From NCBI GenBank assembly GCA_050305515.1, contig JBNLFL010000016.1, forward strand, positions 17,496-81,495: a DNA stretch of 64,000 nucleotides, read 5' to 3'. The notes under the pieces are model-generated. The model saw only the letters and a program-made list of their open reading frames with translations, was not told where the DNA came from and ran no database searches. Positions 11,395-58,580 of this stretch are shown here, one piece after another; the first letter of the stretch is position 1, and each line of letters opens with the position of its first letter. The DNA comes from Sulfurimonadaceae bacterium (lineage in GTDB: Bacteria > Campylobacterota > Campylobacteria > Campylobacterales > Sulfurimonadaceae). Position numbers and translations under genes: made by a program.

Positions 11395-12090
11395 TTATGA
11401 AAAACGGTTTCTAAAGTGTTTTGCCCCGTCTTTGCTCGATTCGACCGTGTCACTGATTCCCTCGAAACTGAAACGGATTTTGCTCTGTTCGATGGTCTCC
11501 ATCTCCCTGATATGATCGAGGTTAATCAGATAGGAGCGATGAATACGCACAAAATGGTGCGGCAGCAGCATTGTTTCAAGGTCGGATATTTTTTTGGTGA
11601 TATATGAGAAGCCTTTTTTTGTGCGCAGCATCACCTCGCTCAGATCGGCTTTGATATAGTAGATCTCTTCGGGACGCAGCAGGTAGTAGTTTTCGCCGTT
11701 GCGGCTCATAATGCGCAGGTCGCCGCTTGCCGAACGCATCTCGAGCGTCACGCGTTCAAGTGTTTTTTCAAGCTGTTCGATACTGTAGGGCTTGACAAGG
11801 TAGCCGATTGCGCCCATGTCGAAGGCATCAAGCGCATGGTCGCTGTAGGCGGTCTGAAAAATCAATGCGCTCGAACTCCCCCGGTAGCGGAGTTCATAGC
11901 CCAGATCAATACCGTTCATCGCCCCCATTTCAATATCAAGAAAGATCACATCGAAAGGGGTGGCAGCGGCTGCTTCAAGTGCGCCGGGGGCATCTTCGGC
12001 TGCCGTAATGTGTTCATGGCCGAGCGTGCGCAGCATACGTTCAAGACGCTGCCGTGCCAGAACCTCGTCATCGACAATGAGAATATTCAT
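11395..12090 (-). CDS. Two-component response regulator, LytTR DNA-binding family
   Basis: Receiver domain (ILIVDDE...DVIFLDIEM) plus a C-terminal LytTR domain (FVRIHRSYLINLDHI). Confidence 0.9.
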   Translation of the reverse strand: MNILIVDDEVLARQRLERMLRTLGHEHITAAEDAPGALEAAAATPFDVIFLDIEMGAMNGIDLGYELRYRGSSSALIFQTAYSDHALDAFDMGAIGYLVKPYSIEQLEKTLERVTLEMRSASGDLRIMSRNGENYYLLRPEEIYYIKADLSEVMLRTKKGFSYITKKISDLETMLLPHHFVRIHRSYLINLDHIREMETIEQSKIRFSFEGISDTVESSKDGAKHFRNRFS

Positions 12091-13075
12091 GATTGACTCC
12101 TAAGGTAATAAGAAATTCCGGAGGGTCGGAAGCGACGACTTCAAGCGCGCCGCCGCAAAGGCGTTCGAGACGCTCTTTGAGATTTGAAAGCCCGATTCCC
12201 TCTTGAAAATCTTTCAGGGCTTTGCCGTTATTGGCTACCCGAATCGAGCCGTGAGCGACTGAGATACTGATACGAAGCGGTCGGTTTTCCAGACCGTGCT
12301 TGATGGCGTTTTCCACCAGAAGCTGGATGGAGAACTTCGGCACGTTCATCGTTTCCACACCATCTTCAAGGGTTGTATTCAGGGCAATACGGTTGTTATG
12401 GCGGATGTTCTCAAGATCGACGTAGTCGCGAACATTCCTCAGTTCGTCACGGACAGCTATGAGTGCCTTCTCCTGCATCGTGTTGCGCATGAATGCAGAT
12501 ATCTTCAAAACGGCAGCTTCCGCCTTGAGCGGATCGGTGTGAATGAGTTCAGCTACGGAGTTTAGCGCATTGAACAGGAAATGGGGATTGAGCTGGGTTT
12601 CAAGAGAACGCAAACGGCTTTGAAGCAGATGATGGTCGGCCTGCTCTTTTTCATTTCGCATTTTTACGAAGCGGTAGAGCAGCGCGCCTACAATGTAGGT
12701 CAGGATACCGACGGCCGCAGCAATGGTAAGGGCGGAGCCTTTGACACCGGAAATGACAGTGACCGGCAGATGATCAGTCAGAAAAATGGTGCAGAGTGTC
12801 CCCAGAAATCCCGAAAGAAACGAGAAAAAGAGGGCCATAAGATCCCAGTAGCGCTTTTCAAGCCGCGGCAGCAACACGGTGTTCATCAGGCTGATGCATA
12901 CCAGAGAAAAGAGCGTGATGAAAAATCCCAGCAAGGCTCCAAAGAATGCACCCTCAACAATCGGTTGCGCGAGCAGCTGGTATCCGAGTGCCGAGAGCGT
13001 GGTTCCAAAGAGGATGCCGATTACGATGATGTAAAGCCAGTCCTGCTTTCGGATCTCAAGTTCGATATCACGCAT
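12068..13075 (-). CDS. LytS/YehU-type sensor histidine kinase
   Basis: Several N-terminal TM helices, then the His_kinase motif LNPHFLFNALNSV and a GHKL ATPase region. The 3-prime end overlaps the response-regulator gene. Start set at the internal ATG (MRDIELE). Confidence 0.85.
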   Translation of the reverse strand: MRDIELEIRKQDWLYIIVIGILFGTTLSALGYQLLAQPIVEGAFFGALLGFFITLFSLVCISLMNTVLLPRLEKRYWDLMALFFSFLSGFLGTLCTIFLTDHLPVTVISGVKGSALTIAAAVGILTYIVGALLYRFVKMRNEKEQADHHLLQSRLRSLETQLNPHFLFNALNSVAELIHTDPLKAEAAVLKISAFMRNTMQEKALIAVRDELRNVRDYVDLENIRHNNRIALNTTLEDGVETMNVPKFSIQLLVENAIKHGLENRPLRISISVAHGSIRVANNGKALKDFQEGIGLSNLKERLERLCGGALEVVASDPPEFLITLGVNHEYSHCR

Positions 13076-14504
13076 CGAGCAGCCTGGCAAGATTGTGAAC
13101 ACCTGTGACGACACCCGGCCATCCCTGCGCGGCATAAACGGAATCTCCCACGTTGTAGAGTCCGCGAAAGGGGGTGTCGTTACCCGGAAGACGGGGCAGA
13201 AAATTGCGCATGGTCATGGCATTGCCTCCAAGTTGCGAGCGTCCAAGGTAGTGCTCAAACGTTCCGGGCGTCGCGGCGAAATGATCGACGATCTGCGATT
13301 TTTTGATCTCCAGTGTATCACAAATACGCTGTAGAAGGTGTGATGCGAGTAGCTGCTTTTGCTCTTTGTAGGCAGCAGGTTCAAGGCCGCTCCACCATCG
13401 CGCATCCGTATGAATCGATGCGGTCACACTGTAGTGTCCCGGTGCTGCCATGAGTGCATCGGAAGGGTCGGAAAAAGAGACAAAGAGTGCCCGGGAGAGC
13501 GTTTGCGGTACGACTTTTGGAAATATGATTTGATAGTGGTGGGCAAACGCGGCACTGCTTTCAAGTGTCAAATAGAGCATAAAGGCGCTCTGATGGTTAT
13601 CGAGCGTTTCATACCGCTGATAGAAGCGTTTGTATTTCGCATTGTCAAAGAGGCGCGCCGAATTGTAGACGGTAGTATTGAGTATGAGATTTCTGGTTTC
13701 AACAGTGGCATTTTTGCCATGAAGCAGATAGCCCGATTTTCGGACTTCAACGTGAGAAATTTCGGTATTGCGGTGTATGGTTCGCATGTTACATGTAAGG
13801 GCGTCGAAGAGCGTGCCCATACCCCCGATGCTGTAGTGGTTGGCACCGAAGGTATAGCCCAGCGCCAGTGCGGCCGTGAGGAAGTTGACCTCTTCGCTGT
13901 TGCTTTGTGTGACGATAAGCAGCTGGGCGTCGATAAAGTCGCGGTACGCTTTTGAAAGCGTGCCGAAAAAACGGCTGATATAGCGCGACGCCGAGATGCC
14001 GATGTAGGGCGCAAACTTCAGAGCCAGAGGCATGAAGCTTGCAAGCGACGTGCATTTGTCCAGCAGTGAATGTGCGGAGTATCGATATCCGTCCATAGCA
14101 TAAAACTGCACGTTGATGTCGTAGACCAGCCTCCAGAACGCTTGGTTTTTCGCATGGGGATGTACCCGTTCGATCTCATCCAAAAAACGATCAAGATCCC
14201 GGTAACGCGCCACGCTTTTGCCGTTTTGAATGACAACGAGAGCCGGGTCGGTCGGAATGAGTTGCGGCGCGGTGCCTGCGGCGTCAAAAAGCGCTTTGAC
14301 ACTCTTGCCCGCTTCATACCCGGCAAAGGTCGTCGCTCCCGTATTATAGCGGCGCCCTTTGTGTTCAAAAGAGCTGCTGCAGCCTCCAAGAGAGGGCTCT
14401 TTTTCAATCAGCGCGACATCGTGGCCTCTGGCATCGAGCAACGCGGCAATGGCGCTTCCGCCAATACCCGAGCCGACAACGGCGAAATCATGCATAATAG
14501 GCAC
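13068..14504 (-). CDS. FAD-dependent oxidoreductase, phytoene-desaturase (CrtI/CrtD-like) family
   Basis: N-terminal dinucleotide-binding fold (FAVVGSGIGGSAIAALLDARGHDVALIEKEPSLGG) and a C-terminal GDSVYAAQGWPGV motif typical of the amine-oxidase/CrtI family. Confidence 0.8.
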   Translation of the reverse strand: MPIMHDFAVVGSGIGGSAIAALLDARGHDVALIEKEPSLGGCSSSFEHKGRRYNTGATTFAGYEAGKSVKALFDAAGTAPQLIPTDPALVVIQNGKSVARYRDLDRFLDEIERVHPHAKNQAFWRLVYDINVQFYAMDGYRYSAHSLLDKCTSLASFMPLALKFAPYIGISASRYISRFFGTLSKAYRDFIDAQLLIVTQSNSEEVNFLTAALALGYTFGANHYSIGGMGTLFDALTCNMRTIHRNTEISHVEVRKSGYLLHGKNATVETRNLILNTTVYNSARLFDNAKYKRFYQRYETLDNHQSAFMLYLTLESSAAFAHHYQIIFPKVVPQTLSRALFVSFSDPSDALMAAPGHYSVTASIHTDARWWSGLEPAAYKEQKQLLASHLLQRICDTLEIKKSQIVDHFAATPGTFEHYLGRSQLGGNAMTMRNFLPRLPGNDTPFRGLYNVGDSVYAAQGWPGVVTGVHNLARLLDA

Positions 14505-22851: not shown

Positions 22852-23490
22852 TCAGGGAGCAAGGCGCGAAATCTGCCATCCTGTTTCGATTTTCGTATAG
22901 AGTATGCGGTCATGCAGGCGGCTTTCGCGTCCCTGCCAGAACTCGATGCTCTCAGGAACAATGCGGTAGCCGCCCCAGAAGTCGGGCAGGGGAATTTCGC
23001 CGTTTTTAAACTTCGCCGCCATCTTCTCCAGCTGCATGGCGAGTGCCTTGCGCGAGGTGATGATCTTTGATTGGTCGCTTACCCACGCACCGAGCTGGCT
23101 GCCGCGCGAGCGTTTCATGAAATAGGCGGCGGACTCTGCCGTGCTGATCTTTTCGCAGCGTCCGCGAATGCGTACCTGACGCTCCAGCTCAAGCCATAAA
23201 AAAGCTGCCGCTACCTGCGGATTGGCATGAAGTTCATGGGCTTTGACGCTGTTGTAATTGGTAAAAAAGACAAAGCCTTTCTCATCGAAAATTTTAAGCA
23301 GTACCGCACGGATGTTGGGCATTCCTGAAGCATCTGCCGTCGCGAGCTGCATGGCGTTGGGCTCGAGCACTTCACTTTTGAGTGCTTCGCCAAACCACGT
23401 TTCAAACTGTAGGAACGGGCTAGTGTCGACCTGTGATTCATCAAGTTCTGCGTGACGGTAGTCACGGCGCATGTCATAAAGGTTCAGCAT
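22852..23490 (-). CDS. pdxH: Pyridoxamine 5-prime-phosphate oxidase
   Basis: 212 aa. The conserved RVLLK-type segment (here AVLLKIFDEKGFVFFTNYNS) and the C-terminal IEFWQGRESRLHDR motif are diagnostic of PdxH. Confidence 0.92.
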   Translation of the reverse strand: MLNLYDMRRDYRHAELDESQVDTSPFLQFETWFGEALKSEVLEPNAMQLATADASGMPNIRAVLLKIFDEKGFVFFTNYNSVKAHELHANPQVAAAFLWLELERQVRIRGRCEKISTAESAAYFMKRSRGSQLGAWVSDQSKIITSRKALAMQLEKMAAKFKNGEIPLPDFWGGYRIVPESIEFWQGRESRLHDRILYTKIETGWQISRLAP

Positions 23491-23495: not shown

Positions 23496-24194
23496 TCAGG
23501 GCAGCGGACGGAGCACAGGCTTAGGTTTTTTGTCATGGTCGTAATACCTGCTGACCCATTGGCGCTCGATATCGTTCCATGTGCGGCTGCTTACCTCTTC
23601 CTGACGGCTGTTTTCACGCTGGGCGAAACGCTGCGCAATGGAGTCTTCAAGTGACGTGTCGTCAGAAGCTACGCCAGCTACGGGAGCACACCAGCGTTCG
23701 AGGTCCGCTTTGAGGGAGAGCATCTGCTTTTGCAGCGCATCAAGCTTGGTTTGCGTCTCTTTGAGCTCTTTTTCTATGGTAGCGCTGTTGGAGTGTGACC
23801 ACGCGGCAATGTTGTCAAGATATTTGATGGCGACCGGAAGCGGTATATTGCTTTTGCCCATCACCGAGAAGGTACCGTTATCGGAGATCTGCCCATGCTT
23901 GGCGGGAATGCGCGTGTTGAGTGTAAGGCGTTCACGCGGGGTAAGTGCACTTTTTTTGTTCTGGATGGCAATGGCGTTGCGGATGACGTTGCGGGTGGCT
24001 TCGGTATCCCAGATGATTTGCCCCAGACGCTGCTGCTCGCTCTCCCAGAACGCTTCATCGGTATAAAGTTCCGACCATGCCGCTTCGAGTTTGGCATAGT
24101 CACGGCTAAGGGTGTTGCACTCTTCGGGGCTCATGGCATACAGCGTCACGAAAAGAAACGCTGTCGCGGTGAGGGTTAATGTAATACGTTGCAT
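23496..24194 (-). CDS. Secreted hypothetical protein, coiled-coil-rich (232 aa)
   Basis: Signal peptide (MQRITLTLTATAFLFVTLYA). Its start lies 15 nt downstream of the 1221-aa gene and its stop 5 nt upstream of pdxH. No recognisable family. Confidence 0.55.
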   Translation of the reverse strand: MQRITLTLTATAFLFVTLYAMSPEECNTLSRDYAKLEAAWSELYTDEAFWESEQQRLGQIIWDTEATRNVIRNAIAIQNKKSALTPRERLTLNTRIPAKHGQISDNGTFSVMGKSNIPLPVAIKYLDNIAAWSHSNSATIEKELKETQTKLDALQKQMLSLKADLERWCAPVAGVASDDTSLEDSIAQRFAQRENSRQEEVSSRTWNDIERQWVSRYYDHDKKPKPVLRPLP

Positions 24195-24209
24195 GATAAC
24201 TCCTTTGTT

Positions 24210-27200
24210 CTAATTGCCATGACACTGGCGTTTTCCGGGATCAAGCCCGATATGTTGACCCGCAGGACAGGGTTTGCAGTTGTTTACAGGGTCCGGCAGT
24301 GTCGGTTTTGTATCGAGTGCCTTGCCTTTACTGACACTGATGTTGGTATAGAGCGGATACTGGATGATCTTCATTTTCTTTTTGTTTTCTGCATTACGCT
24401 GTGTGATGAGGTCGTTGATCGTTTTGACATCTACAGGGCCGACAATCGTGTAGGTGGTTGATGAGCAGTTCGCCGTACGCTGCAAATAGGTACTCTTCTC
24501 GGTAATGAGATAATATTTTCCGACAGAGGGTGCCGTCGCTCCTGTTGTTGTGCTTTGCGAGGCACGGCTACTTTGGGATGTCGTCACGCTGCTTGATACC
24601 GAAGATGATGACCATGATTGACTCGAACTCCATGATGTTTGATCGTTACTGTTGCCATGGGCACTGCTGCGCTGGTTGTGTGCGGTAAGCGTGGCGATAG
24701 TTTCGGCATTCGCTTCATTCATGTTGTCCTGACCGAAGTCATGACCCTCTTCACCCCATCCCGAAGCGTTGTCCTGATTCTGACGCTCGCCGACACCGCT
24801 TTGGCGGTCACTCTCGCGGCTGTCCCATCCGGAAGCATCAAACCCGCCCCCGCCACTTTCAGGAATACAGATTTTATCGAGTCCACAGACCTGACCGAGC
24901 GGGCAGTTATGGTCGGTTTTACATGTAATGATGGAATCCTTGATCTGTTGACAGATAGCAGCTATTTTTGAAGAGCACGCCACGGCTTCCTGTGCTTTCG
25001 TATCGGCATAGGGACCGAAGATCTCCGCCGTATCTGCGGCTGCCCGGAGTTCGTTGAGATCACCTCCGGCGTTTTGCTCCTTGCAGCCGGCAAGCGCGAT
25101 TTTCTGCTGCATCAGTGCCGCGATGGCACGCTCTATGGCACTGCGCTGTGTGTTGCACTCGGCAATCGCTTTTTGCACGCCGGCAGAGTGCGTAGCGGCT
25201 GTGGAGGCGCTGAGACGGATACTTTCACTAATAGGTGCTAGCGATTGTTTGGCACCGGCGATCATCTCCTGCGATGCTCCGGAACGATCAAGCTCTTTGT
25301 TGATGCGGGCTGTGAGTGTCGCAGCCGTGGCCTGAAGCGAACGTACTTTATCAGCGTGCTCTCTCGCACCGCTTTGCAGGAGTGCGAGGGATTCGGGCGA
25401 AAGCAGCGCCAGTGAGGAGCGGGCCGATTCAATAGCGGCATTGATGGCATTGGACCGATAAAGCGCTTCGCGAACAAGTTGGTCGAACGCGGCATTGTTA
25501 AAGCCGGAAACCAGATGGTCGTAGCGCCCTTTGATAACTCCGGCTATCAGAAGCGCCTTGTTCGCTTCCGATCGTGATGCCGCCGCCGCACTTTTTGCCT
25601 GAAGGGCCAATGCGTTGCAGGCTTCAAGCGCCATCGATTTGTCGGCTTGCGACACGTAATCGCACGTCTCTTTGGCAGAATCGGCGGCGAAGGCGTAATG
25701 AAGTTTGAGTTTTCCCATATCTGATACCGAAGCGGCGTTGGCCGCTGCAATCTCCTGAGGATCGACAACGCCGAACTGCTGCATTTTGGCGCACCCCTCA
25801 ACGAGCTCATCAATGCCTTCGCCCGCACTCACGATTTTCTCTTTTATGGCACTGTACTCGGAGAGATACTGCTGCGCCTGTTGTGAAGCGCGTTCCAGCG
25901 GGGGGAGTTCCGCTTTGATACTGCGCTCTATTCCCTTGAGTTCGGCAAAAAGGCCGCGTACATCCGCAAAAGGATCAAATTCGTTTTGTTCCAGACCGCT
26001 GCACTCCCTGACACGGGCTTCAAGCGTATCAAACGCTGCAAGATAGCGGTTATAGCGGCTGAGTTCCATTTGAACGGCATCGACAAGCTGTGCGGGATCG
26101 GAAGCGGGAGCCTGACACGATTCGAGTGCTTGCGAGATGTCGCTTACCATGCGTTCACGTTCGCTCATGCGTTCGCGGAATGCCGCAATGTTGGCGCTTT
26201 CGGCAGCCATGATCGTTTTGATGTTCTGATCGACTTCCCATGCAGGCTTTTTGTATGCACGCGCCTGCTCCATGAGAGACTCTCCGGCTTTGGCCGCATA
26301 TTTCTTGATAAGCGGATCGCTCAGCAGCGTGCGGATCTGCTGATAGGGGGCGTCGATATACTCCGTGTAGGCTTTGGTGATAAACTCCTGCCAGGTCTCA
26401 ATATTGTGCAGGATGGTTTTGCCTTCGTCAATGCTTTTCGATGTTCCCGCAAGCTGCTCTTTCAGACTTTTGAGTTTTTTTAGAGTGCTTTTGATGGCGG
26501 TCGCATGGGTGAGTGCTTCTTTGACGTGGTAGTCTATGTCGGCTTTATAGCTTTGGGCTTCGCGCTTGCTTTTATTGATATATGCAAGGGTTTGACTGAT
26601 TAGTTTTGAATCGGATTTGTTCTGGCATGCGTTCTGTGCTTTCTCCCGTGCACTCAGACCGCGATCACGAATTTTGTCCAGATAGGTGCCGAGCTGATCA
26701 TGGGCAGTCTCAAAGCTTTGTTGATGCTGCGCGATGTCGCCGCACTCGGTGTATAGCGCCGCAGCTTCATGCCTGAGGTTCTCAAGTGTCTGTGCAGTGG
26801 CGTCGGAGCGGGAGTTGAATTCGGTGATTTTTTTGATCTGTTTTTCAAGTTTGCTATCAATACTGTAGAGCTGATCGGAGTTTTTCTCCAGCGTTTTCAT
26901 TGCGCTTTGCACCTGTGCGAAGATGCCTACCATTTTCTTGATCTGTTCATTATTCTGGGCATATTTCGCGGCGACGCTCATAAAGTACTGAAACATGCGG
27001 TCATGTTCCGCATCAAGAGCCGCCTTGAGCGGTTGAAGGCTTTGAACTGTTACCTGGTTTTGGCGTGCCTTGAATGCGGCATACTCATATTTTTCCAGAT
27101 AACCCAGCTCGGCGAACTCACGAACATTCTGCTGCTCCTTGATACCGAAGCTTCTGATCTCCGCCATGGGGTAACGGCCGTCAAGACTGAAGGTCTTCAT

Positions 27201-27875
27201 GTAGGCCTGTTCCGGAGTATATCCGGCCTGCCTGAGGTCATTGTAGTATTCGAGCATCTCACCCGAGAAGTAGCGTTTCATCCCTTTTTCGGCGAAATCA
27301 AGAAACTCGATTTCGAGTTCGACAAGCTGGATGAAGAGTCCCCCCGGACTGCCGCCGGTGCTATCTTTGAGAACCCAGTCAATGCCGCCGGTGATGAGGT
27401 CTTTCGAAAGCGCGGTCATCTTTTCGGTTCCGGTGGCTTTAAGCCGTGCTTTGAGGACGCTCGAAGCATCGGCATAGTTCCCCAGCCACACCTGCTGATA
27501 GACGGCTTTGGCATCATCGCGCGTGAGGGGAACGTAGTTTAAAATCTGCGCCGCGGGACTGTCATCGTCGATGATTTCGGCAATATGAGAGTCCACATAA
27601 GTGACGAAGTAGTCGCTGGCACTCTGTCCGGCCATCTGGAAGGCACCTTCGTAGTCGCCTCCGGCCATGCTGCCCAGAAAGTCACCGACTTTTGCCGGAT
27701 CAACGCTGCTGAGCCCTTTGGCAAGTTTGGGGTGATCTTCCTTGAGTTCTGCAATAAGGTCATTTTTAATCTGTACCATGGCCTCCTGCATCAGTTCATC
27801 ATCGCTGGGAGTATCGGCCAAACCTGTCGAGCATGTAAGCGAGAGAAACAGAAAAATGTGAATAAGAAAACGCAT
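24210..27875 (-). CDS. Large secreted alpha-helical/coiled-coil protein (1221 aa) with Ser-rich linker and Cys-containing C-terminal module
   Basis: Signal peptide MRFLIHIFLFLSLTCSTGLA. About 950 aa of helical, Ala/Glu/Lys/Gln-rich sequence follow. Then comes a CxxDHNCPLGQVCGLDKIC knot-like segment, a Ser-rich tract (SWSSSQSWSSSSVSSSVTTSQSSRASQSTTT) and a small C-terminal domain ending CKPCPAGQH...CHGN. Confidence 0.7.
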   Translation of the reverse strand: MRFLIHIFLFLSLTCSTGLADTPSDDELMQEAMVQIKNDLIAELKEDHPKLAKGLSSVDPAKVGDFLGSMAGGDYEGAFQMAGQSASDYFVTYVDSHIAEIIDDDSPAAQILNYVPLTRDDAKAVYQQVWLGNYADASSVLKARLKATGTEKMTALSKDLITGGIDWVLKDSTGGSPGGLFIQLVELEIEFLDFAEKGMKRYFSGEMLEYYNDLRQAGYTPEQAYMKTFSLDGRYPMAEIRSFGIKEQQNVREFAELGYLEKYEYAAFKARQNQVTVQSLQPLKAALDAEHDRMFQYFMSVAAKYAQNNEQIKKMVGIFAQVQSAMKTLEKNSDQLYSIDSKLEKQIKKITEFNSRSDATAQTLENLRHEAAALYTECGDIAQHQQSFETAHDQLGTYLDKIRDRGLSAREKAQNACQNKSDSKLISQTLAYINKSKREAQSYKADIDYHVKEALTHATAIKSTLKKLKSLKEQLAGTSKSIDEGKTILHNIETWQEFITKAYTEYIDAPYQQIRTLLSDPLIKKYAAKAGESLMEQARAYKKPAWEVDQNIKTIMAAESANIAAFRERMSERERMVSDISQALESCQAPASDPAQLVDAVQMELSRYNRYLAAFDTLEARVRECSGLEQNEFDPFADVRGLFAELKGIERSIKAELPPLERASQQAQQYLSEYSAIKEKIVSAGEGIDELVEGCAKMQQFGVVDPQEIAAANAASVSDMGKLKLHYAFAADSAKETCDYVSQADKSMALEACNALALQAKSAAAASRSEANKALLIAGVIKGRYDHLVSGFNNAAFDQLVREALYRSNAINAAIESARSSLALLSPESLALLQSGAREHADKVRSLQATAATLTARINKELDRSGASQEMIAGAKQSLAPISESIRLSASTAATHSAGVQKAIAECNTQRSAIERAIAALMQQKIALAGCKEQNAGGDLNELRAAADTAEIFGPYADTKAQEAVACSSKIAAICQQIKDSIITCKTDHNCPLGQVCGLDKICIPESGGGGFDASGWDSRESDRQSGVGERQNQDNASGWGEEGHDFGQDNMNEANAETIATLTAHNQRSSAHGNSNDQTSWSSSQSWSSSSVSSSVTTSQSSRASQSTTTGATAPSVGKYYLITEKSTYLQRTANCSSTTYTIVGPVDVKTINDLITQRNAENKKKMKIIQYPLYTNISVSKGKALDTKPTLPDPVNNCKPCPAGQHIGLDPGKRQCHGN

Positions 27876-27887
27876 GGTCTCCTCCTT

Positions 27888-30800
27888 TTACTGCCGCTGC
27901 AGCTCTATGCTGATGGTGATGGTGTCATCCAGAGTGCTGCAGGTTTTTGTTTTCGGGTAGCTGCCTTTGAGGGTGTTGCCGCTGATCTTGCCGTTCCAGA
28001 TGCCGAGTCCGGGGATGGTGAATGTGTTTTTATCGGGGTAGACATAGGCGTAGTCGGAACTGTTGTAGGCGTCGAGATGGATGCGGCGCTGTCCGCAGTA
28101 GTGGCGGAAACCGTATGTGACGGTAGCATTGTATTTGAATTTTTGCAGGCTTTCAGGACCGACATAGTGGTCTTCGACGTTGATGGTAATGGGGAACTTC
28201 TCTGTGCCGCTCTCTACTGTTGTGACGGTCGCCGTTCCTTTAAATCGTGCCGGAAGCGCCATACCGGAGCTTGCTGCGCTGGTCTGTGTCACGCTACCTT
28301 TGGACTGCCAGGTTCCCTTGACATCATCATCAGTCCAGGTACCGCTGCCGCTGAGGTTACCTTTGGCATCTTTTTTGATGGTGCCTTTCCAGCTGAAAGT
28401 TCCACTGCTGCCACCGGCCTGTTTGAGGTCTATCTTACCGGTGTTGCTGATGTTTCCGGTGAAGGAACCGTAGTCATCTCCTTCGTAACGCACCGTCACC
28501 TTGCCATCTTTGGCAATCGTCATAGTAAAAGTGCCTGAAGCGAGTTTGATAATCCCGCCTGAGCCTTTCCAGCTTCCGGTCATGGTACCGCTGAAGGCAG
28601 TAGAACCCGAAGTGGTCGTTGTACCAGTGGTAATGGAGGTTCCTGAGAGTGTGTCCGTAGAGCCTACCGTTCCCGTGGCAGTCGTACCCGTTGTCGTGCT
28701 GCTGCCGCAATCGGCAACGACATCGGTCATACCGCGGTAATTGGAACCGGAATTGTTGGCCCAGGTCGAATTTTCCGAGTCGACAATCGTATAGGTTCCT
28801 GCCGGCAGGGAGATGTTGGGTGACGCCGTCCAGTAAGCGTTGGGAACGCCGCCCTGTCCGGGTTTACCTATCGTTGACCACGGACCATACATTTTACCCG
28901 AACTATCACGAACTCCAATAGTGCCGGGCTTGCTTCCTTTGGCATTGTTCCAGTGGTAGTTGGTGATGGAGACAAGTTTACATGTAGACTTGATGGTGAA
29001 CGTAGTGGGGTTTTTCGGATTGTTTTGTACGCCGGCAATGTTACCCGTATTTAAAATGGTCTGCGATCCAGTTGTGGTCGTAGTTCCTGACGATGTATCC
29101 GAAGAAGTTGATGCGGTACCCGATGGCGTCGAAGATGTATGGGATGTTGGCGTATGCGTGTCATCATTTGAATGCGACGAATACTGCTTGCTGACAAGAA
29201 TCTCTTTTTGTTTGTTCATACCCGAGTTGACCTGTTGGGTCATCTGTTCGTATCCGAAACTGTTGGAGGGCTCTTCAGGGGTGTTGTAGCTGTCAAAAGA
29301 GTTGCGGTCCCCGACAACCTGGTCTCTGCCACTGTCACGACCTGTAAAACGGTCTGTCAAAGAGAGCCCGGCAGCGGTCATCGCGGCGTCATCTTTTTTC
29401 TTCTGGGCTTCGCGATTGGCTTTCTGCTCGGCTGCCGCTACGGCGTCGGCATTTTTTTTCTTTTCCTGCAGTCTCACTCGTAACGATGCGATCAGCTGTG
29501 ATATATTCGGGTCCGGCCACTGCTTGACACTCGCTTCGAAAGATTCAAGAGCACTGGCAAGATCACTTTTGTCAAGCGCTGCCCATCCTTTTTTGTTGTA
29601 GTCTCCGGCTCTTTGCTGGCGTTTTAGCAGATCATCGAGTTTTCGTTGCACACTGGAATCGTCTTGAATCTGGAGACTTTTTTTATATGAGGAAATAGCT
29701 TCACTGAATTTGGAGTGTTCATTGAACGTATCTCCTTGCCGCGCCTCACTCTCAGCTTGTGAGACACGCTCTGCTACCTGTGGACGATACCCTGTTATGC
29801 CTTCTGTATGTTCTTCCCATTTAGGAAAGTTGTCTATAAGGCTTAAGGCTTTTTTGGGATCTCTGTTCTCGAGAAGCGCGCCAATCTCTTTGAATGTGTC
29901 TGTCGCTTTTTCCTGCATTTCAAGACTACGTTCATTATATATTGTTGAAAGTTCGTTCCAGCGAGGGTCTTCTGAGACAGGAAGTTGCCGTTGCGTCATT
30001 CTTTGTCGTATGGAGTCCATAGTGCTCATAGCACTTTTGAGTTTTCCCTCTTTAATCTGGGATTTGATGTTTGGAATGTCTTCTTGCAGTACTTTGTTCC
30101 ATGGTTCTTTCCATCGTTTATACTCTTCAAGACGTTTGGCGTTGTTGACAGCTCTGGGACCACCCACCAGATCAGACAACTCAATTGCTTTGATACCTGC
30201 ATTGAAATCACTGTTTTTAAGGACTTTGGATTGACCAGCATTGATAAGACGCGCTGTTAAAATAGATTGCATCGCTTGTTTGTCTTTTTCCAGCATCATG
30301 TCAGCGATGCGTTTGTAAATTTCACCCGCTTCAATCCAGAGATCTTCCCAGCCGTCGCGTTGAGGAAATATCAGGGAGTTGATTTTTTGAATATCTTCTT
30401 CAATACACTTCGCGTTTTCTTTTTGGACGACGATTTTCAGTTTCTGATAGACCAGTTCATCATTTTTACGCATCTCATCAAAAATTTTGAGATTCTCTTC
30501 ATAATTTTTCTGGTCAACATAATTTCTGCATCCCAGGAGCGCTTTTTTTGAAAACGGCATGGGTGCATACCATGATGTCAAAGGACCGGTTGCCATACAA
30601 GGCCCACCCTGATTCGTACCGGCATAGTAACCGCCCAATGAACCACCGGAACTTTTACAAAGACAGTTATAAAGTTTGTCAAAGTCACTCTTTCTTGAAG
30701 TCTGATTTCCCGAAGAAACCTGAGCGCTCGAAGACGCAGGGTTGTTCAAAACGGAGTTTTCATAACCTTTGAAGGTGAACCGCTTGCTCTCTTCATCCGC

Positions 30801-31472
30801 ATACGCCTTACGCAGTCTGTTCAGTGTATTTGGTATTTCGTCCCTGTCTTTTTTCAAGGAATCCATAGAGACTTTATGATCGTTTTTCAGAGCATTCAAA
30901 ACCTTCATCAGTTTAGAGTTTTTCTCCAGTTCTTTTAATTTTTTAAGTACGAAGCTTTGACTGTTCTTTCCACCAGAATTCACTCCGTCTACGATGTTCC
31001 AGTCCAAATTGGTTTGAACCAGATCTTTTGAGAGGGAAAAGGGTGTCACTCCCGGAATCAAAAATTTAATTTGCTCTTCGGTGACTTGTATCTGAAGCTC
31101 ATTGATTATTTTTGACCGGCTCTTCAATGACTGGTTGGCAAGGTACGCGTACAGGTCATTCGCGTCAAGATACTCTTTGCGACACTGTTCATAGTTGTCG
31201 TCAAAGAGTTTTTTGATCGCATTGTCATTGTTGGCTTGGGGAAATGCAGAAGGTTGCCCATACTCTTTAAGTGTGCGTGCACATTTTTCTACAAGCCTGA
31301 TACGTTCATCCATGGGCATACCTGGATGCGTTAGCGCTTTTTCTAAGCCTTCTTTTGCTTCATTCACCCATTGTTGTTGCGATTGATTCAAGACACGTGC
31401 ATCTGCATTTGAATAAAAACTGACTAGCATGAGAAGAATAACGGAAAAGTATTTGAGAAGAGAGGGTGCCAT
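27888..31472 (-). CDS. Large secreted modular protein (~1194 aa): helical/TPR-like N-terminal two-thirds, Ser/Thr-rich linkers, three beta-rich C-terminal modules
   Basis: Start set at the ATG at 31472 (AAGGAG 6 nt upstream), giving signal peptide MAPSLLKYFSVILLMLVSFYSNADA. Ser/Thr tracts include HTSSTPSGTASTSSDTSSGTTTTTGS and SSTTTGTTATGTVGSTDTLSGTSITTGTTTTSGS. The gene lies 12 nt upstream of the next giant gene. Confidence 0.7.
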   Translation of the reverse strand: MAPSLLKYFSVILLMLVSFYSNADARVLNQSQQQWVNEAKEGLEKALTHPGMPMDERIRLVEKCARTLKEYGQPSAFPQANNDNAIKKLFDDNYEQCRKEYLDANDLYAYLANQSLKSRSKIINELQIQVTEEQIKFLIPGVTPFSLSKDLVQTNLDWNIVDGVNSGGKNSQSFVLKKLKELEKNSKLMKVLNALKNDHKVSMDSLKKDRDEIPNTLNRLRKAYADEESKRFTFKGYENSVLNNPASSSAQVSSGNQTSRKSDFDKLYNCLCKSSGGSLGGYYAGTNQGGPCMATGPLTSWYAPMPFSKKALLGCRNYVDQKNYEENLKIFDEMRKNDELVYQKLKIVVQKENAKCIEEDIQKINSLIFPQRDGWEDLWIEAGEIYKRIADMMLEKDKQAMQSILTARLINAGQSKVLKNSDFNAGIKAIELSDLVGGPRAVNNAKRLEEYKRWKEPWNKVLQEDIPNIKSQIKEGKLKSAMSTMDSIRQRMTQRQLPVSEDPRWNELSTIYNERSLEMQEKATDTFKEIGALLENRDPKKALSLIDNFPKWEEHTEGITGYRPQVAERVSQAESEARQGDTFNEHSKFSEAISSYKKSLQIQDDSSVQRKLDDLLKRQQRAGDYNKKGWAALDKSDLASALESFEASVKQWPDPNISQLIASLRVRLQEKKKNADAVAAAEQKANREAQKKKDDAAMTAAGLSLTDRFTGRDSGRDQVVGDRNSFDSYNTPEEPSNSFGYEQMTQQVNSGMNKQKEILVSKQYSSHSNDDTHTPTSHTSSTPSGTASTSSDTSSGTTTTTGSQTILNTGNIAGVQNNPKNPTTFTIKSTCKLVSITNYHWNNAKGSKPGTIGVRDSSGKMYGPWSTIGKPGQGGVPNAYWTASPNISLPAGTYTIVDSENSTWANNSGSNYRGMTDVVADCGSSTTTGTTATGTVGSTDTLSGTSITTGTTTTSGSTAFSGTMTGSWKGSGGIIKLASGTFTMTIAKDGKVTVRYEGDDYGSFTGNISNTGKIDLKQAGGSSGTFSWKGTIKKDAKGNLSGSGTWTDDDVKGTWQSKGSVTQTSAASSGMALPARFKGTATVTTVESGTEKFPITINVEDHYVGPESLQKFKYNATVTYGFRHYCGQRRIHLDAYNSSDYAYVYPDKNTFTIPGLGIWNGKISGNTLKGSYPKTKTCSTLDDTITISIELQRQ

Positions 31473-31495
31473 AACATGCTCCTTAGTCAAGGTAA

Positions 31496-31527
31496 GATCT
31501 GAATGCTTACATGTAAGCATTCAGATC
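31496..31527. promoter_or_regulatory. 32-bp perfect palindrome (potential 16-bp-stem hairpin or operator) between the csgG-like gene and the first giant gene
   Basis: GATCTGAATGCTTACATGTAAGCATTCAGATC equals its own reverse complement, checked base by base. It is centred on the TTACATGTAA motif and lies 24 nt upstream of the corrected start at 31472. Confidence 0.6.
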
Positions 31528-31557
31528 ATAGCTTGGGGAGCGGGAAGCTCCCGAAAG

Positions 31558-32307
31558 TTATTTCTTGTAGTACTGCTTCGGCGTTTTGACGATCAGCTGA
31601 TTGACCGCCTGGTCGATACAGGCGCGAATCGCTTTTTCCATCGGGGTGTTGGTGTATTTGCCCAAAGAGACGGGCAGGGCGCCTTCGCCTCTGCCGAGGG
31701 TGGTTCCCACATTGGCGTTATAGTCGGTGGTTTTGCCCTCAACCCGCGTGGCGAAGACGACGCGGCCCGATTTCATGTCGGTGGCGCGCATGTCGATGGC
31801 GACATGCGAGTTTTTGCTTCCGCCGCCCATGGAGAGCGGCAGCTGTCCCGAAAAGAGCGAAATCCCCATACCGCCGCTGTCGGCTTCAAATTCGGAGACG
31901 ACACCGTAGATGTAAAGCTCCGCTCCTTCAATGTGACCGCGTGAAGGTCCCGTACCCTCTTCGGCGCGGCGGCTGGCACTGAGGTCCTGTTCGAGCATCA
32001 TATCTTTCATGGCCTGACGGTCAAGGACAATAAAGTGGTTGGAGTCAAAGAGCGAGGTCATAAGCATTTCGCGCAGACCGTCACCGATTTCGCGCGTGGC
32101 ACCGGCGGCCTTGACCTGAAAGTCGCCCACTGCCACGTTGACTTTGGGACCGTTGTACTCCTGACGCTGCGCTTCATAGACGTCCATGCCCTGATTGTGC
32201 GTCGCCTGTGTCTGTGTGGGAACCTCAGGTCCCCCGCCGCCGCAGCCCGAGAGCAGCAGCATGGCTGCTGAGGCTGCGGCGATACCCAGTGATGTAATGC
32301 GTAACAT
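31558..32307 (-). CDS. CsgG-family lipoprotein (curli-type secretion-channel family)
   Basis: Lipobox LLLSGC. By eye it aligns to E. coli CsgG blocks: VNVAVGDFQVK...IGDGLREMLMTSLFDSNHFIVLDRQAMKDMMLEQDL versus IFVSVYNIQDE...ATAMLVTALKDSRWFIPLERQGLQNLLNERKI. A further block is AELYIYGVVSEFEADSGGMG...VAIDMRATDMKSGRVV. At 249 aa the size fits. Confidence 0.8.
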   Translation of the reverse strand: MLRITSLGIAAASAAMLLLSGCGGGGPEVPTQTQATHNQGMDVYEAQRQEYNGPKVNVAVGDFQVKAAGATREIGDGLREMLMTSLFDSNHFIVLDRQAMKDMMLEQDLSASRRAEEGTGPSRGHIEGAELYIYGVVSEFEADSGGMGISLFSGQLPLSMGGGSKNSHVAIDMRATDMKSGRVVFATRVEGKTTDYNANVGTTLGRGEGALPVSLGKYTNTPMEKAIRACIDQAVNQLIVKTPKQYYKK

Positions 32308-32320
32308 GACCGATCCTTTT

Positions 32321-33154
32321 TTAGTTGAAGAAGCCCATGGCTTTGACGTAGATCATAAAGGTTTTATCCAGATCACTGCCGTCATAGGAATCGATAAGCG
32401 GAATTTTGATGCCACTTGAGAGCGGAATGCCCGGAACAATATTGGTGCTGCTCAGTTCCGCCCAGAGGTCGGCAACACTCAGTTTGTCTTCCATGAAATA
32501 GGTGAATTTCACATTGGCGACCGCAACATTGGGAAGCAGTCCCATATGCGAGATGCCGCCCATTAAAGCGATGGAATCATCATAATCATCATCCATATAA
32601 TGTGTGTAATTCAACAAACCGTGGACACGCAGCTCCTGATTGAGGTCTTTAGCCAGAGCATGGGTCAGGACAATGGCTCCGGAACCCGTTCCCAGTCCAT
32701 TGTCTTCATCCCCGGTCGAAGCGATGTAGCGCAGTGTAGAGATGTTGACACCGTATTCGCTCTCTAAAGTACCGAAGTGGTAGTTGGCCGATGTGGAGAT
32801 ATCGCCGATACCCATTTCATCGCTCTCGCCGTTGCGGACAATCGGCAGGCGGACATCAAAACCGAGATTGCCTGTCGGGTTGTAACGGGGCACGACATCG
32901 ACATAATGGATGTCGCTGCCGATGCTGAGTGTGCCGTCAACTGCCATGGCACCTTCACCTTTCGTTGCAAAATCGATCTGGTTGGTATGGTCAATGACAT
33001 CGTTTTTGAAAGTCTGCATGGTTGCCAGCTCACTCGTACCCATGGCTGTTGGACAGTGTTCAACCCATGTACCGTTGATAAATTCCCAATGACATCCCGC
33101 ACTTGCCAGCAGTGCGCTGGCACTTAACGCCAGTGATAGAAGAACCTTTTTCAT
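32321..33154 (-). CDS. Putative outer-membrane beta-barrel protein (277 aa)
   Basis: Signal peptide MKKVLLSLALSASALLASA. Alternating hydrophobic beta-strand pattern, Asp/Gly-rich loops, and a C-terminal aromatic-rich end (YVKAMGFFN). Its stop lies 13 nt upstream of the csgG-like start. The family (possibly MetA-pathway/transporter-like barrel) is not established. Confidence 0.6.
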   Translation of the reverse strand: MKKVLLSLALSASALLASAGCHWEFINGTWVEHCPTAMGTSELATMQTFKNDVIDHTNQIDFATKGEGAMAVDGTLSIGSDIHYVDVVPRYNPTGNLGFDVRLPIVRNGESDEMGIGDISTSANYHFGTLESEYGVNISTLRYIASTGDEDNGLGTGSGAIVLTHALAKDLNQELRVHGLLNYTHYMDDDYDDSIALMGGISHMGLLPNVAVANVKFTYFMEDKLSVADLWAELSSTNIVPGIPLSSGIKIPLIDSYDGSDLDKTFMIYVKAMGFFN

Positions 33155-37126: not shown

Positions 37127-39178
37127 TCAGCTTTCCTGAAACGGTTCGGGTTTTCCAAAGAGATACCCCTGCGCATAATCGACGCCAAGTTCCTTGATGG
37201 TGCCAAACACGGCTTCGTCGGTGACATACTCCGCAATGGTCTTGATGCCCAGGCGTCTGGCGAGCTGTACGATGGCGTCGATGATCTTCTGCTTTTCGGG
37301 GTCCGTGTCGCAGTTGCGTACGAAGATGCCGTCGATTTTCAGGTAGTCGCTTTGCAGCGAGAGAATGCGCCCGAAGTTGGAATGCTCGCTTCCGAAGTCG
37401 TCGATGGCGATGTTGCAGCCGTAGTCTTTAACCAGTGCAATGGTCTTGGTTACGACGTCGCCTTCGCTTGAGAGCGTGAGGTTTTCAAGTACTTCAAAAG
37501 TGACGTTGTGCGGGTTAATATGGAATCGTTCCGCTTTTTGCTTGATAAAGTCGACCAGATAGCCGTCCATGATGTCGCGTTCGGTTATATTGATAGAGAA
37601 TTTGGTCCCGGTTCCCGAAAACTGCGCAAACGTCTTGTTGATCATTGACTTGGTAATCGAGGTCAGCAGCCCCAGTCGGGTGGCAGAATTTAGAAAACGG
37701 GCCGGAGGAATGACTTCACCCTCTTCGATAACCCGCGCCAGTGCTTCATATTTGTAGATTTTTCGGGTCGTGACATCGACGATGGGCTGATAGTAAGGGA
37801 CGATCATGTCTTTGTAGATGAATTTTCGGGTGCGGTTGAGCCAGTCGATGCTTTCACGCTCTTCCAGGAACTCTTCGGAGTCCTTGTTGTAGATGACCTT
37901 GAAGCGTTTGCCGTAGCGTTTGGTCAGGTCGAGTGCAAACTCGGCATCGATAATGGTGTCGCGCTCATGCTGAATACTGGCGATCCCGATGCTGAAGGTG
38001 ATGGGAGTCTCTATGGTGTCGATCTCCATCTCGGTGTTGTCGAAATAGGCGAAAATCTGGCTGCAGAGGTACTCGATGTAGTCAGTTTCGAAGCGCGGTG
38101 AAAGAATCACGAAACGGTCCGCACTCAGTTTGTAGAGCTTTTCGCTGCGCTCAAGCAGCAGGCTCAGATGCTCTGCAACAACGGAGAGGAGCTTGTCTCC
38201 GAATGAAAAGCCGTGAAGTTTGTTGAAGACGTTGAAGTTGTTGATATCGAGCAGGTAGAGGCTTCCTTCGTCAAAATAAGTAATATCGCGCTGGAGTGCC
38301 AGTGCATTGGGAAGATTCGTATTAGTGTCGATGTAAAGCCGTGAGAGCAGCTCTTTGGAACGCTCCATGGCAATCGCTTCGTTTTTACGTGCAACGTCAC
38401 GAAGGTGAAGGCTTTTTGAAGTCATGGAGGTAATATCATGGCGAATCCCCATATACTCGATAATATCGCCTTTAGGGTCGAGAATGGGGATGATGGTTGA
38501 TTCAACCGTATATTTTACGCCGTCTTTGGAGAGGTTGTTGATGACCCCCTTCCATATTTGGCCGTTTTTGATGGTCTGCCACAAATCTGCAAATACCTCT
38601 TTTGGCATATCGGGATGACGGATGATGTTGTGCGCTCTACCCATCAGCTCTTCGCGTGAATATCCGCTGATCTCGACAAAGGCGTCGTTGGCATAGGTGA
38701 TATATCCGCGCGGGTCGGTTTTGGAGAAGATGACGCTGCTGTCAAAGGCTTTGAGGTACTCGTTGACGAGGTGATGGGCATCGCGGGAATCACGGCTAAG
38801 CAGCAGGTGGTGGGCTTTTTGCTGCAGCCGCAGTTCAAGCCGCTGCAAATCAATCGGTTTGGCTATGATGGTCTCAAGACCACTCTCGATCGCTTGAAAA
38901 AGCCGGGAACTCTCATCTTTTGAAGCGATCAGCACGACCGGAATTTCGGGCGTGATCTTGCGAATGGCAAGACAGGTTTCAATACCGTCAAACTCCGGCA
39001 GAGCGATGGCACTGAGTACCAGATCGGGAGTGTGCAGACGATAGGCTTCAATGGCCTGCAGACCCGTTGAGGCATGAATAAGGTGCTGGCAACGTGTCTC
39101 AAGATATGCCGTGACATCTTTGGCGCAGTAGCGGTCACTTTCAATATAAAGAACACTTAAAGAGAGCAATGGTGTCAT
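37127..39178 (-). CDS. Response-regulator receiver + PAS + degenerate GGDEF + EAL protein (likely c-di-GMP phosphodiesterase)
   Basis: REC domain (DLVLSAIALPEFDG), PAS (FSKTDPRGYITYANDAF), a GGDEF-like domain whose signature is replaced by SADRF, and an EAL domain with YQPIVD...YEALARV intact. Confidence 0.88.
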   Translation of the reverse strand: MTPLLSLSVLYIESDRYCAKDVTAYLETRCQHLIHASTGLQAIEAYRLHTPDLVLSAIALPEFDGIETCLAIRKITPEIPVVLIASKDESSRLFQAIESGLETIIAKPIDLQRLELRLQQKAHHLLLSRDSRDAHHLVNEYLKAFDSSVIFSKTDPRGYITYANDAFVEISGYSREELMGRAHNIIRHPDMPKEVFADLWQTIKNGQIWKGVINNLSKDGVKYTVESTIIPILDPKGDIIEYMGIRHDITSMTSKSLHLRDVARKNEAIAMERSKELLSRLYIDTNTNLPNALALQRDITYFDEGSLYLLDINNFNVFNKLHGFSFGDKLLSVVAEHLSLLLERSEKLYKLSADRFVILSPRFETDYIEYLCSQIFAYFDNTEMEIDTIETPITFSIGIASIQHERDTIIDAEFALDLTKRYGKRFKVIYNKDSEEFLEERESIDWLNRTRKFIYKDMIVPYYQPIVDVTTRKIYKYEALARVIEEGEVIPPARFLNSATRLGLLTSITKSMINKTFAQFSGTGTKFSINITERDIMDGYLVDFIKQKAERFHINPHNVTFEVLENLTLSSEGDVVTKTIALVKDYGCNIAIDDFGSEHSNFGRILSLQSDYLKIDGIFVRNCDTDPEKQKIIDAIVQLARRLGIKTIAEYVTDEAVFGTIKELGVDYAQGYLFGKPEPFQES

Positions 39179-54005: not shown

Positions 54006-54135
54006 GGCGTCTCCTTGTTTTATGGTTGTAAAAGTGTAGCGCCGCAGCGCGGCAGAGGCAATCCGTATTTTGCGAAGATTTCGTAAGGAAAAGCAATTTT
54101 TGGATTTGCAGTAAAATACGGCTAAAAAGAGGGCT

Positions 54136-54606
54136 GTGATGACTCCTGCCGTAACGGTGGCAAAAAAAGCGAAAATTTCCTACACGCTTCACTCCTATAC
54201 CCATGACCCTTCCAATACGGCATACGGTGAGGAAGCTTCAGTAATGCTGGGCGTTGCGCCGGAGCGGGTTTTTAAAACGCTGGTAGTGCGGCTTGATGAC
54301 AAACAGCTGGTTGTTGCCGTGATTCCCGTTTCATCCATGCTCTCCATGAAACAGCTTGCCAAAGCCACAGGCGGTAAAAAAGCCGAAATGGCCGAGGGTG
54401 CGGATGTGGAACGTTCAAGCGGTTACATTCTGGGTGGAGTCAGCCCGCTGGGCCAAAAAAAGCGTCTTCGGACGTTTATTGACAGTTCGGCGGAGCGTTA
54501 TGAGAGCATCTATGTGAGTGCGGGGCGTCGGGGGCTGGAGATAGAACTTGCCCCTGAAGATTTGTGCCGTCTTGTCAACGGAGTGTTCGCGGGATTGTCT
54601 GCCTGA
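54136..54606 (+). CDS. ybaK: Cys-tRNA(Pro)/Cys-tRNA(Cys) deacylase YbaK
   Basis: 156 aa. YbaK-type sequence ([39 protein letters not shown]). Confidence 0.85.
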
Positions 54607-54612
54607 GGCGCT

Positions 54613-57333: not shown

Positions 57334-57377
57334 TTATTAAATTTTGATCTTTACATGTAATCCCAAAAGCACCATCT

Positions 57378-58559: not shown

Positions 58560-58580
58560 TAGAGATGCTCCTGATTTGTA

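Follow-up and report, generated by a model that had tools for sequence, protein, structure and literature searches.

Introduction

Curli secretion and holdfast anchoring are, to our knowledge, the only roles of CsgG/HfaB-family lipoproteins that have been studied, and most members of the family have no known role. The constriction residues of curli CsgG are Tyr51, Asn55 and Phe56. In Caulobacter, HfaA and HfaD reach the cell surface only if the CsgG-like HfaB is present, and HfaB forms an anchor complex that crosses the outer membrane (PMC6707917). Here we describe five genes, A to E, from a 64-kb stretch of DNA of a Sulfurimonadaceae bacterium (the whole of which is referred to as the window, and whose positions are used throughout unless a related locus, designated by an L-number, is named), in which a lipoprotein of this family (B) is encoded between an outer-membrane barrel (A) and three further exported proteins, the giant C and D and the smaller E. 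We propose, as a reading that stands at about an even chance of being right, that a CsgG-based outer-membrane hub docks, and perhaps threads or displays, giant proteins tagged by an Arg-rich motif that C, D and E share. An earlier interpretation made from the DNA letters, hereafter the original prediction, had held that the CsgG-like pore exports or anchors the giant proteins, which is plausible, the functional link between them being what the data show.

In its working the system is closest to a CsgG/HfaB-type translocon or anchor, and it belongs to none of the curli, holdfast and Fap systems. We neither know of nor found a described system in which FapF-type and CsgG-type channels are encoded together. 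The combination was originally thought to be undescribed, and this holds, as it falls into no curated family and the full-text literature searched contains no description of the cluster or of an association between CsgG and Rhs proteins.

A shared motif and a constant partner of one CsgG clade

The five genes lie on the minus strand in the order A (32321-33154, 277 amino acids (aa)), B (31558-32307, 249 aa), C (27888-31472, 1194 aa), D (24210-27875, 1221 aa) and E (23496-24194, 232 aa), with intergenic gaps of 13 bp (A-B), about 85 bp (B-C, which holds a hairpin), 12 bp (C-D) and 15 bp (D-E). These are the five co-directional, tightly spaced open reading frames (ORFs) for exported proteins of the original prediction, found where it had placed them, and all of their products begin, as read from the sequence, with a signal-peptide-like segment. 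The predicted cleavage sites, marked by a hyphen, are LLASA-G in A, SNADA-R in C, TGLA-D in D and TLYA-M in E, with a lipobox, LLSG-C, in B. The longest ORF of C spans 27888-31520 (1210 aa), and because a perfect AAGGAG stands 7 nt 5' of the ATG at 31472, M17 of this ORF, and a signal-peptide-like segment begins at the same residue, M17 is most likely the start of a 1194-aa product, the length originally given for C; residue numbers of C refer to the 1210-aa ORF.

L001, L008, L009 and L013/L014 have all five genes in this order, and L002-L004 have part of the set, so that the neighbourhood is indeed conserved in relatives and the grouping of the five genes is not due to chance. The operon is present in at least five Sulfurimonadaceae-type lineages and in at least three distinct chromosomal contexts, which argues that it is a self-contained module. 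Orthologs of A and B are 55-80% identical, and those of C, D and E are 33-46% identical in most lineages (75% for D in L013/L014), with C ranging from 1186 to 1618 aa and D from 558 to 1244 aa. L009 is the locus of a Sulfuricurvum metagenome-assembled genome (MAG); it is syntenic with the window, and at 90% identity its B clusters with the window B. The window thus comes from a close relative of Sulfuricurvum, and the Campylobacterota assignment of the original prediction is right.

The Arg-rich motif, about 28 aa long ([FWY]xxR[ED]xxRxxxVxxRxxxD), occurs once in each of C, D and E. All three copies, on the minus strand, are matched by both a strict pattern and a motif hidden Markov model (HMM): residues 720-748 of C (SLTDRFTGRDSGRDQVVGDRNSFDSYNTP; 29277-29363), residues 1012-1040 of D (FDASGWDSRESDRQSGVGERQNQDNASGW; 24756-24842), 181 aa from the C-terminus, and residues 185-213 of E (SIAQRFAQRENSRQEEVSSRTWNDIERQW; 23556-23642). 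The strict pattern, [FWY]..R[EDQ]..R...[VI]..R...[DE], picks out C, D and E together with their orthologs and proteins from other phyla, against 0-1 matches per shuffle in 20 shuffles of about 495,000 residues. The motif HMM matches the C, D and E orthologs in L001, L008 and L013, and only C and E in L009; across the six frames of the window it matches C, D and E alone, a result that is partly circular as the window copies are in the training set. Judged by its sequence, the motif is probably helical, with Arg residues at i, i+4 and i+8 along one face of the helix.

In nine proteins of the D, PASTA and Rhs types the motif lies 178-197 aa from the C-terminus and is followed by a linker and then by an end domain of about 110 aa, of which there are at least two types. 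In most of the nine the linker is enriched in Ser, Thr, Gly and Pro (fractions of 0.37-0.86 vs a background of 0.17-0.30), and the linker of the L001 D protein is not (0.26 vs 0.22). As far as these sequences indicate, motif, linker and end domain are a fixed cassette on very different bodies. In D, the linker (residues 1041-1118) and the C-terminal domain (1119-1221), encoded at 24213-24755 on the minus strand, make up this C-terminal cassette together with the motif. Comparable sorting or retention cassettes are the C-terminal domain of the type IX secretion system, the LapA-type retention module that sits in a TolC-like channel and the linker-in-barrel of autotransporters, all of which, like the present cassette, join a terminal module and a low-complexity linker to large and varied passengers and couple them to one outer-membrane channel. 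The likeness is one of analogy only, as there is no sequence or family relation, the channel here is of the CsgG type and the Arg-rich motif is not known from those systems.

An HMM of the E family, a helical protein with two conserved Cys, finds homologues in other phyla beside CsgG-like genes whose products are 52-58% identical to B, in both metagenomic and genomic loci (matches in L005, L007, L016, L019, L020, L023 and L026), one of these other-phyla loci being from Desulfoferrobacter. Giant proteins of different kinds are encoded in these loci. Rhs-repeat/DUF6531 proteins of 1320-2007 aa with signal peptides (L007 10824-16847, L016 4644-8606 and L019 5371-10521) are encoded directly downstream of the CsgG-like lipoprotein gene and upstream of the E-family gene, and PASTA-domain proteins of about 930-1000 aa are encoded between the CsgG-like and E-like genes of other phyla. 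The motif is present in the PASTA proteins, in one Rhs protein (L019, near the C-terminus and with the cassette) and in all full-length E-like proteins; a truncated 127-aa E-like copy in L019 is without the motif region. Among clade-I CsgG loci with at least 5 kb of downstream sequence, 14/14 have an E-family gene with the motif, whereas neither the E family nor the motif occurs in any of the 67 loci of the more distant clade II (0/67). All loci were retrieved through B or A, so this co-occurrence is measured one way only. Since the shared motif travels with this CsgG clade across phyla, we regard C, D and E as clients or partners of the channel. By sequence, the E family, the motif and its cassette, the Cys module of C and the N-terminal domain of D match no curated family or solved structure. 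No Pfam or NCBIfam model reached its threshold with A, C, D or E, nor with the E-like proteins from other phyla, and when A, C, D, the E family and the N-terminal domain of D were searched against the PDB by sequence and profile, the matches were confined to noise, TPR and coiled-coil entries.

L096 (1-20414, Logan SRR29054613) encodes a more distant form of the system, in which a 664-aa TPR-CsgG fusion, a type of fusion also found in P0099, is accompanied by a FlgT_N protein, a 96-aa ORF and a further giant ORF. A 2372-aa PKD/Ig/SprB protein encoded beside the fusion carries the Cys module of C, and a 1936-aa PASTA/CLIPPER/CarboxypepD_reg protein carries the N-terminal domain of D. The Arg-rich motif was not detected in L096.

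The CsgG-family lipoprotein B

B matches the Pfam CsgG model (PF03783) with 114 bits against a cut-off of 20.8 (E=8e-33), its residues 54-246 covering profile positions 8-205 of 210, and it matches the sequence of CsgG in the PDB at E~5e-4. CsgG (4uv2/6l7c, E=2e-10) is also the top Foldseek match of its AlphaFold2 (AF2) model, which has a mean confidence (pLDDT) of 71.8. Together with the alignment to CsgG, these results confirm the 249-aa protein as the CsgG-family lipoprotein that it had been taken for. The lipobox Cys22 is invariant in 63 relatives. Exact look-up of the B sequence gave no match.

Both membrane hairpins of CsgG have equivalents of similar length in B when aligned to the E. 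coli protein, TM1 at residues 144-166 (31810-31878, minus) and TM2 at residues 192-220 (31648-31734, minus); their alternating hydrophobic pattern is kept across the 63 relatives, and they form long strands in the AF2 model. The equivalent of the constriction loop, residues 61-70 (GDFQVKAAGA; 32098-32127, minus), is the most clade-specific stretch of B, and the clade-specific columns (61, 62, 64, 65, 67, 69 and 70) cluster in it. In alignments this loop reads FQVKAAGA(T/S), with KAAGATRE in the window, and is without the Tyr, Asn and Phe of the curli constriction. Asp62 is invariant in clade-I B proteins and mostly Lys in the other clade. As the clade-specific residues, including the invariant Asp62, are in the constriction loop, the docking site for the motif may be at or near the pore.

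B is thus like curli CsgG in its Pfam family, its lipidation, both hairpin equivalents and its best structural match, and the small accessory E with a short client tag is a conceptual parallel to CsgE/CsgF with the CsgA targeting segment. It is not an ortholog of curli CsgG, reaching 18.4 bits against a cut-off of 505 (NCBIfam PRK15184), with KAAGAT in place of the constriction residues and without the curli partners. None of the CsgA/B/E/F, Fap or Hfa families is found among the operon neighbours in Pfam and NCBIfam searches, in agreement with the original view that curli-type subunits are missing here. The clients also differ, being 232-1221 aa long, Cys-containing and helical, TPR-like or beta-modular rather than small Q/N-rich amyloid subunits, with the putative signal internal or C-terminal. 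An amyloid-subunit reading of the curli or Fap kind was accordingly rejected, for want of CsgA/B or FapB/C family members and of small repeat proteins rich in Q/N. For an anchoring rather than a releasing role, the closest functional analogy is the Caulobacter HfaA/HfaB/HfaD system, in which a CsgG-like lipoprotein likewise serves as the hub. B is not an HfaB ortholog (24.1 bits against a cut-off of 300, NCBIfam NF037935), Hfa-like neighbours, HfaA/HfaD homologues and holdfast polysaccharide genes are absent, and the partners here are giant and carry the motif.

After CsgG, the Foldseek matches of B include the FlgT/LPHT ring, HpaA, PelC and PqiC-like proteins, which raises a reading in which B is a ring on the periplasmic face of the outer membrane, like FlgT, FlgP, PelC, PqiC or LptE-type proteins, and C, D and E are a periplasmic structure, or a tether between outer membrane and peptidoglycan, docked through the motif, with nothing crossing the outer membrane. 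The core alpha/beta fold of B is indeed shared with FlgT/H-ring, PelC, PqiC and LptE, outer-membrane lipoproteins that use it as rings or plugs and as docking rings for periplasmic partners (PMC13631591), and a FlgT_N protein adjoins the L096 system. B, by contrast, is recognised in Pfam by the CsgG model and not by those of FlgT or PelC, keeps amphipathic TM1 and TM2 hairpins and has its clade-specific residues in the pore loop. As far as we know, the hairpins that span the membrane in CsgG are absent from FlgT/H-ring, PelC, PqiC and LptE. The narrower assignment of B as a flagellar H-ring or FlgT protein was rejected on the CsgG match and the membrane hairpins. The periplasmic reading is taken up again below with the giant proteins.

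CsgG-like genes have also been reported in marine phage genomes, those of pelagiphages and a methylophage (PMC9004378, PMC9599517, PMC7029224), and are another uncharacterised use of the family.

The FapF-like barrel A

The AF2 model of A (pLDDT 80.7) has 12 barrel strands, with helices before them at residues 40-63 that are a possible plug, and the protein has a signal peptide and an N-terminal Cys21-Cys34 loop. Foldseek places it with FapF (5o68, E=9e-10, TM-score 0.64-0.69; also 5o65) and with the COG4313 channel 4rl8, such that the 277-aa protein is an outer-membrane beta-barrel as first proposed. A PTG motif is common to FapF and the COG4313 channel Pput2725 (PMC5557850), and the RYNPTG segment of A (residues 90-95; 32870-32887, minus), whose columns R90-G95 are invariant, corresponds to it. 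A therefore has the features of the FapF/COG4313 fold class, a 12-strand barrel (TM-score 0.6-0.69), an N-terminal helix and the PTG motif. Unlike FapF, A is without a long periplasmic coiled-coil domain before the barrel, and there are no fapA-E genes. A is not a FapF ortholog, with 18.3 bits against a cut-off of 700 (NCBIfam NF058560) over residues 77-118 only, and no Pfam family matches it at E<=1, Phenol_MetA_deg (PF13557) and other outer-membrane protein families included.

The A family is tiny, with 16 homologues among 5.8e9 proteins and occurrence, within the sensitivity of the pattern scan used, in 3/185,579 species genomes; it is present in MAGs of Sulfuricurvum, Sulfurimonas and a Helicobacteraceae, and an NCBI/Logan record has the same sequence as A. 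Downstream of distant CsgG-like genes, L064 (11795-12583), L091 (3637-4410) and L093 (1565-2338) encode barrels with weak similarity to A (E=4e-5 to 7e-4). Their neighbours, judged by N-terminal sequence, appear to resemble NikR and CbiM of metal uptake, and these barrels probably represent a separate, unrelated role for this barrel class.

The distribution of A bears on whether the five products act together at all. A and B could serve another substrate, such as a small molecule or an exopolysaccharide, next to C, D and E as independent secreted proteins, a reading for which one may cite A homologues that stand alone in L011 and L015, the A-like barrels of the NikR/CbiM-type transport operons and the import of small hydrophobic molecules by COG4313 channels. 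Mere adjacency does not account for a gene order kept in five lineages despite different flanks, for the tight spacing of 12-15 bp or for the pairing of clade-I B with the E family and motif in every one of the loci counted above, which clade II lacks throughout. On these conservation and co-occurrence data we consider it highly improbable and effectively excluded.

The giant proteins C and D

From its N-terminus, C consists of a variable helical region, a Cys-rich module, a helical or TPR-like region, the Arg-rich motif, a Ser/Thr-rich linker and three beta-rich modules. The Cys module (residues 276-343; 30492-30695, minus) is defined by invariant columns, CxC..GGSLGG..GPC..GPLTxW..C. TPR_1, TPR_16 and TPR_2 give sub-threshold matches at residues 593-699, and a profile of five C orthologs matches designed CTPR, HOP and BamD in the PDB at E=1e-4 to 5e-3. 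When full-length C was the query of a word-indexed homolog search, low-complexity words dominated and one partial match was obtained.

D consists of a conserved N-terminal domain of about 210 aa, a stretch of about 700 residues in which helix formers abound, a Cys knot resembling Dickkopf/DUF7107, the conserved motif, which in D is acidic as well as Arg-rich, a Ser-rich linker and a C-terminal domain of about 103 aa. The N-terminal domain (residues 20-240; 27156-27818, minus), delimited by a representative search and HMM matches, also occurs in giant PASTA/CLIPPER proteins of other phyla, one of which is encoded beside a CsgG-domain gene; it is not found in the PASTA proteins of L016, L019 and L026, and one protein that carries it (L097) has no CsgG gene within 10 kb. 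Residues 967-999 match Dickkopf_N weakly (E=0.15), and relatives in the D family (P0144, P0147 and P0149) match DUF7107 with E-values from 4e-15 to 1e-23. The L009 ortholog of D (12060-13736, 558 aa) aligns to residues 629-1219 and is without the N-terminal domain and half of the helical region, so that either this part of D is dispensable or the L009 assembly is imperfect.

The composition of both proteins agrees with the long helical regions, Ser/Thr-rich linkers and beta-rich terminal modules originally described, residues 240-960 of D and 1-720 of C being rich in helix formers, with Ser/Thr-rich linkers at about 780-840 and 940-975 in C and about 1080-1118 in D, and beta-rich modules at the C-terminal ends. 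C has 12 Cys, D has 20 and E has 2, and the end domains of C and D contain Cys pairs. Pfam detects no RHS repeats or DUF6531 in C or D, and an Rhs toxin system in the window was rejected for want of such repeats.

These features bear on what, if anything, crosses the outer membrane. In a type-VIII-like secretion, which is the reading of the original prediction, B, with or without A, would be a diffusion channel through which C, D and E pass whole and unfolded to become a surface fibre, adhesin or matrix, the motif being a secretion signal like N22 of CsgA. The retention of both hairpins in B, the resemblance of A to FapF, a transporter of unfolded polypeptide, the surface modules of the cargo relatives (PKD/Ig/SprB, CLIPPER, CarboxypepD_reg and Rhs), the Ser/Thr-rich linkers of the giant proteins and the precedent of HfaB all fit such a route. 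It is harder to reconcile with chains of 1200-2000 aa that have many Cys and large helical or TPR bodies, with an operon that encodes no periplasmic chaperone, cap or energy source, and with a motif whose internal or C-terminal position, at a fixed distance from the C-terminus, suggests an anchoring cassette more than a leader; we hold it to be unlikely.

The Cys of C and D, the TPR-like repeats of C, the PASTA domain in the equivalents from other lineages and the lack of an encoded energy source point away from surface export, and proteins that are at least partly periplasmic fit them. This is common ground with the periplasmic-ring reading introduced above, which can further claim the even Cys counts, suggestive of folding in the periplasm, and the peptidoglycan-binding nature of the PASTA module. 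The Rhs shells and PKD/Ig/SprB arrays of other loci, which are typical of surface proteins, speak against a structure confined to the periplasm, and the FapF-like channel A would be left without a role, such that we also think this reading improbable.

A model for the operon products

We propose a model for the five gene products that combines a pore-type channel with periplasmic bodies. The five genes would form one operon for an outer-membrane complex built round the lipoprotein B, each subunit of which would span the outer membrane with two beta-hairpins and which, as CsgG does, would assemble into an oligomeric ring with a channel. C, D and E would enter the periplasm via Sec and act as clients or subunits of the B ring, with the Arg-rich motif as a docking or targeting element for it. 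E would be the constant accessory subunit, with a role like that of CsgE or CsgF for curli, and the giant proteins would be interchangeable cargo, the TPR/coiled-coil proteins C and D here and Rhs and PASTA proteins in other phyla. Once the motif is docked on the ring, the linker, taken to be flexible and disordered, would pass through the pore and the small end domain or domains would lie on the cell surface, while the disulfide-bonded helical or TPR body would stay on the periplasmic side. The outcome would be a trans-outer-membrane tether or a surface-display device, to which A, as a Campylobacterota-specific addition, may contribute a second polypeptide conduit or an assembly partner. We favour this threading topology because it allows for a pore-type channel even though the cargo is too bulky and has too many Cys to diffuse as curli subunits do. 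It appears the most economical one, and it resembles the HfaABD anchor, which likewise crosses the outer membrane (PMC6707917).

Several points weigh against this hub model. Motif helicity, ring formation and threading are inferred, as are binding of the motif to the ring and surface exposure. The 12 Cys of C and 20 of D would be oxidised in the periplasm, which would hinder passage through a CsgG-type pore of about 1 nm, and neither an energy source nor a CsgE-like cap is recognisable in the operon. No motif is found at E<0.01 in the Rhs proteins of L007 and L016 or in the 558-aa L009 ortholog of D. The survey of loci amounts to about 10 independent clade-I loci, all chosen through B, and A occurs without B in L011 and L015.

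A broader form of the proposal is a new cross-phylum outer-membrane pathway in which clade-I CsgG channels and an obligatory E recognise the C-terminal cassette and export, thread or anchor giant Sec-dependent proteins. This is possible, if somewhat less probable than its converse, and there is a real chance that a new sorting pathway is at hand. Such a pathway would be a cargo-sorting system of diderm bacteria that covers Rhs, PASTA/coiled-coil and TPR cargo, and it would account for the outer-membrane handling of Rhs proteins that carry signal peptides. In either form the locus defines a testable system, with a specific CsgG clade, an obligatory partner E, a motif cassette that marks clients and interchangeable giant cargo. 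If the motif is a docking or sorting signal, it provides a handle for predicting the clients of such channels genome-wide, a candidate outer-membrane route for Sec-dependent Rhs and other giant proteins, and an example of an energy-free outer-membrane pore that holds or displays very large proteins. The presence of a FapF-type and a CsgG-type channel, both known from functional-amyloid export, in one operon is unusual in itself. As a speculation, the system may bear on the attachment of sulfur-oxidising Sulfurimonadaceae to minerals, sulfur or biofilm matrices.

Operon organisation, the B-C hairpin and neighbouring genes

A scan for sigma-70 promoters and terminators performed no better than on shuffled sequence, so the operon structure rests on gene spacing and conservation. 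The gap between B and C contains a hairpin (31488-31535, minus), a palindrome of 24+24 nt that is 92% complementary, with a predicted RNA fold of -30.3 kcal/mol (z=-7.2) and an outer stem that pairs with the Shine-Dalgarno sequence of C. Hairpins are present at the same position in L001 (10735-10860), L003 (915-1028), L008 (1730-1825), L009 (8385-8510) and L013 (11590-11690), and a loop core, UUACAUGU, is common to 4/6 of these B-C hairpins. In L001, L003 and L009, B is also followed by a GC hairpin with a U-run, similar to a terminator. An Rfam search of the window gave no match. The B-C hairpin may set the ratio of A/B to C/D/E expression, or it may be a protein-binding operator.

The genes on either side of the operon are unrelated housekeeping genes, with ubiB/ABC1 and ubiD upstream and pdxH, a solute-binding protein and a histidine kinase downstream. 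The start codon of pdxH (22852-23490) lies 5 bp past the stop of E on the same strand, so that the operon transcript may run on into pdxH. In L009, which is syntenic, E is separated by additional ORFs from a 193-aa ORF at the position that matches pdxH.

Further from the operon, three genes of cyclic di-GMP signalling (37127-39178, 45373-48294 and 55443-56402, with PAS-GGDEF-EAL or PAS-GGDEF architecture) lie within 25 kb of it, in keeping with a surface or biofilm lifestyle. The last of these, a PAS-GGDEF gene, falls in a stretch of low GC content (54000-60000; 0.33-0.42 vs about 0.51 elsewhere), which also holds two ORFs without a Pfam match (56578-57333 and 57378-58559) and may be a horizontally acquired island. 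Finally, a 694-aa ORF at 60915-62999 has an unusual architecture, in which an HMGL-like/isopropylmalate-synthase-type domain is fused to an S-adenosylmethionine-dependent methyltransferase domain.

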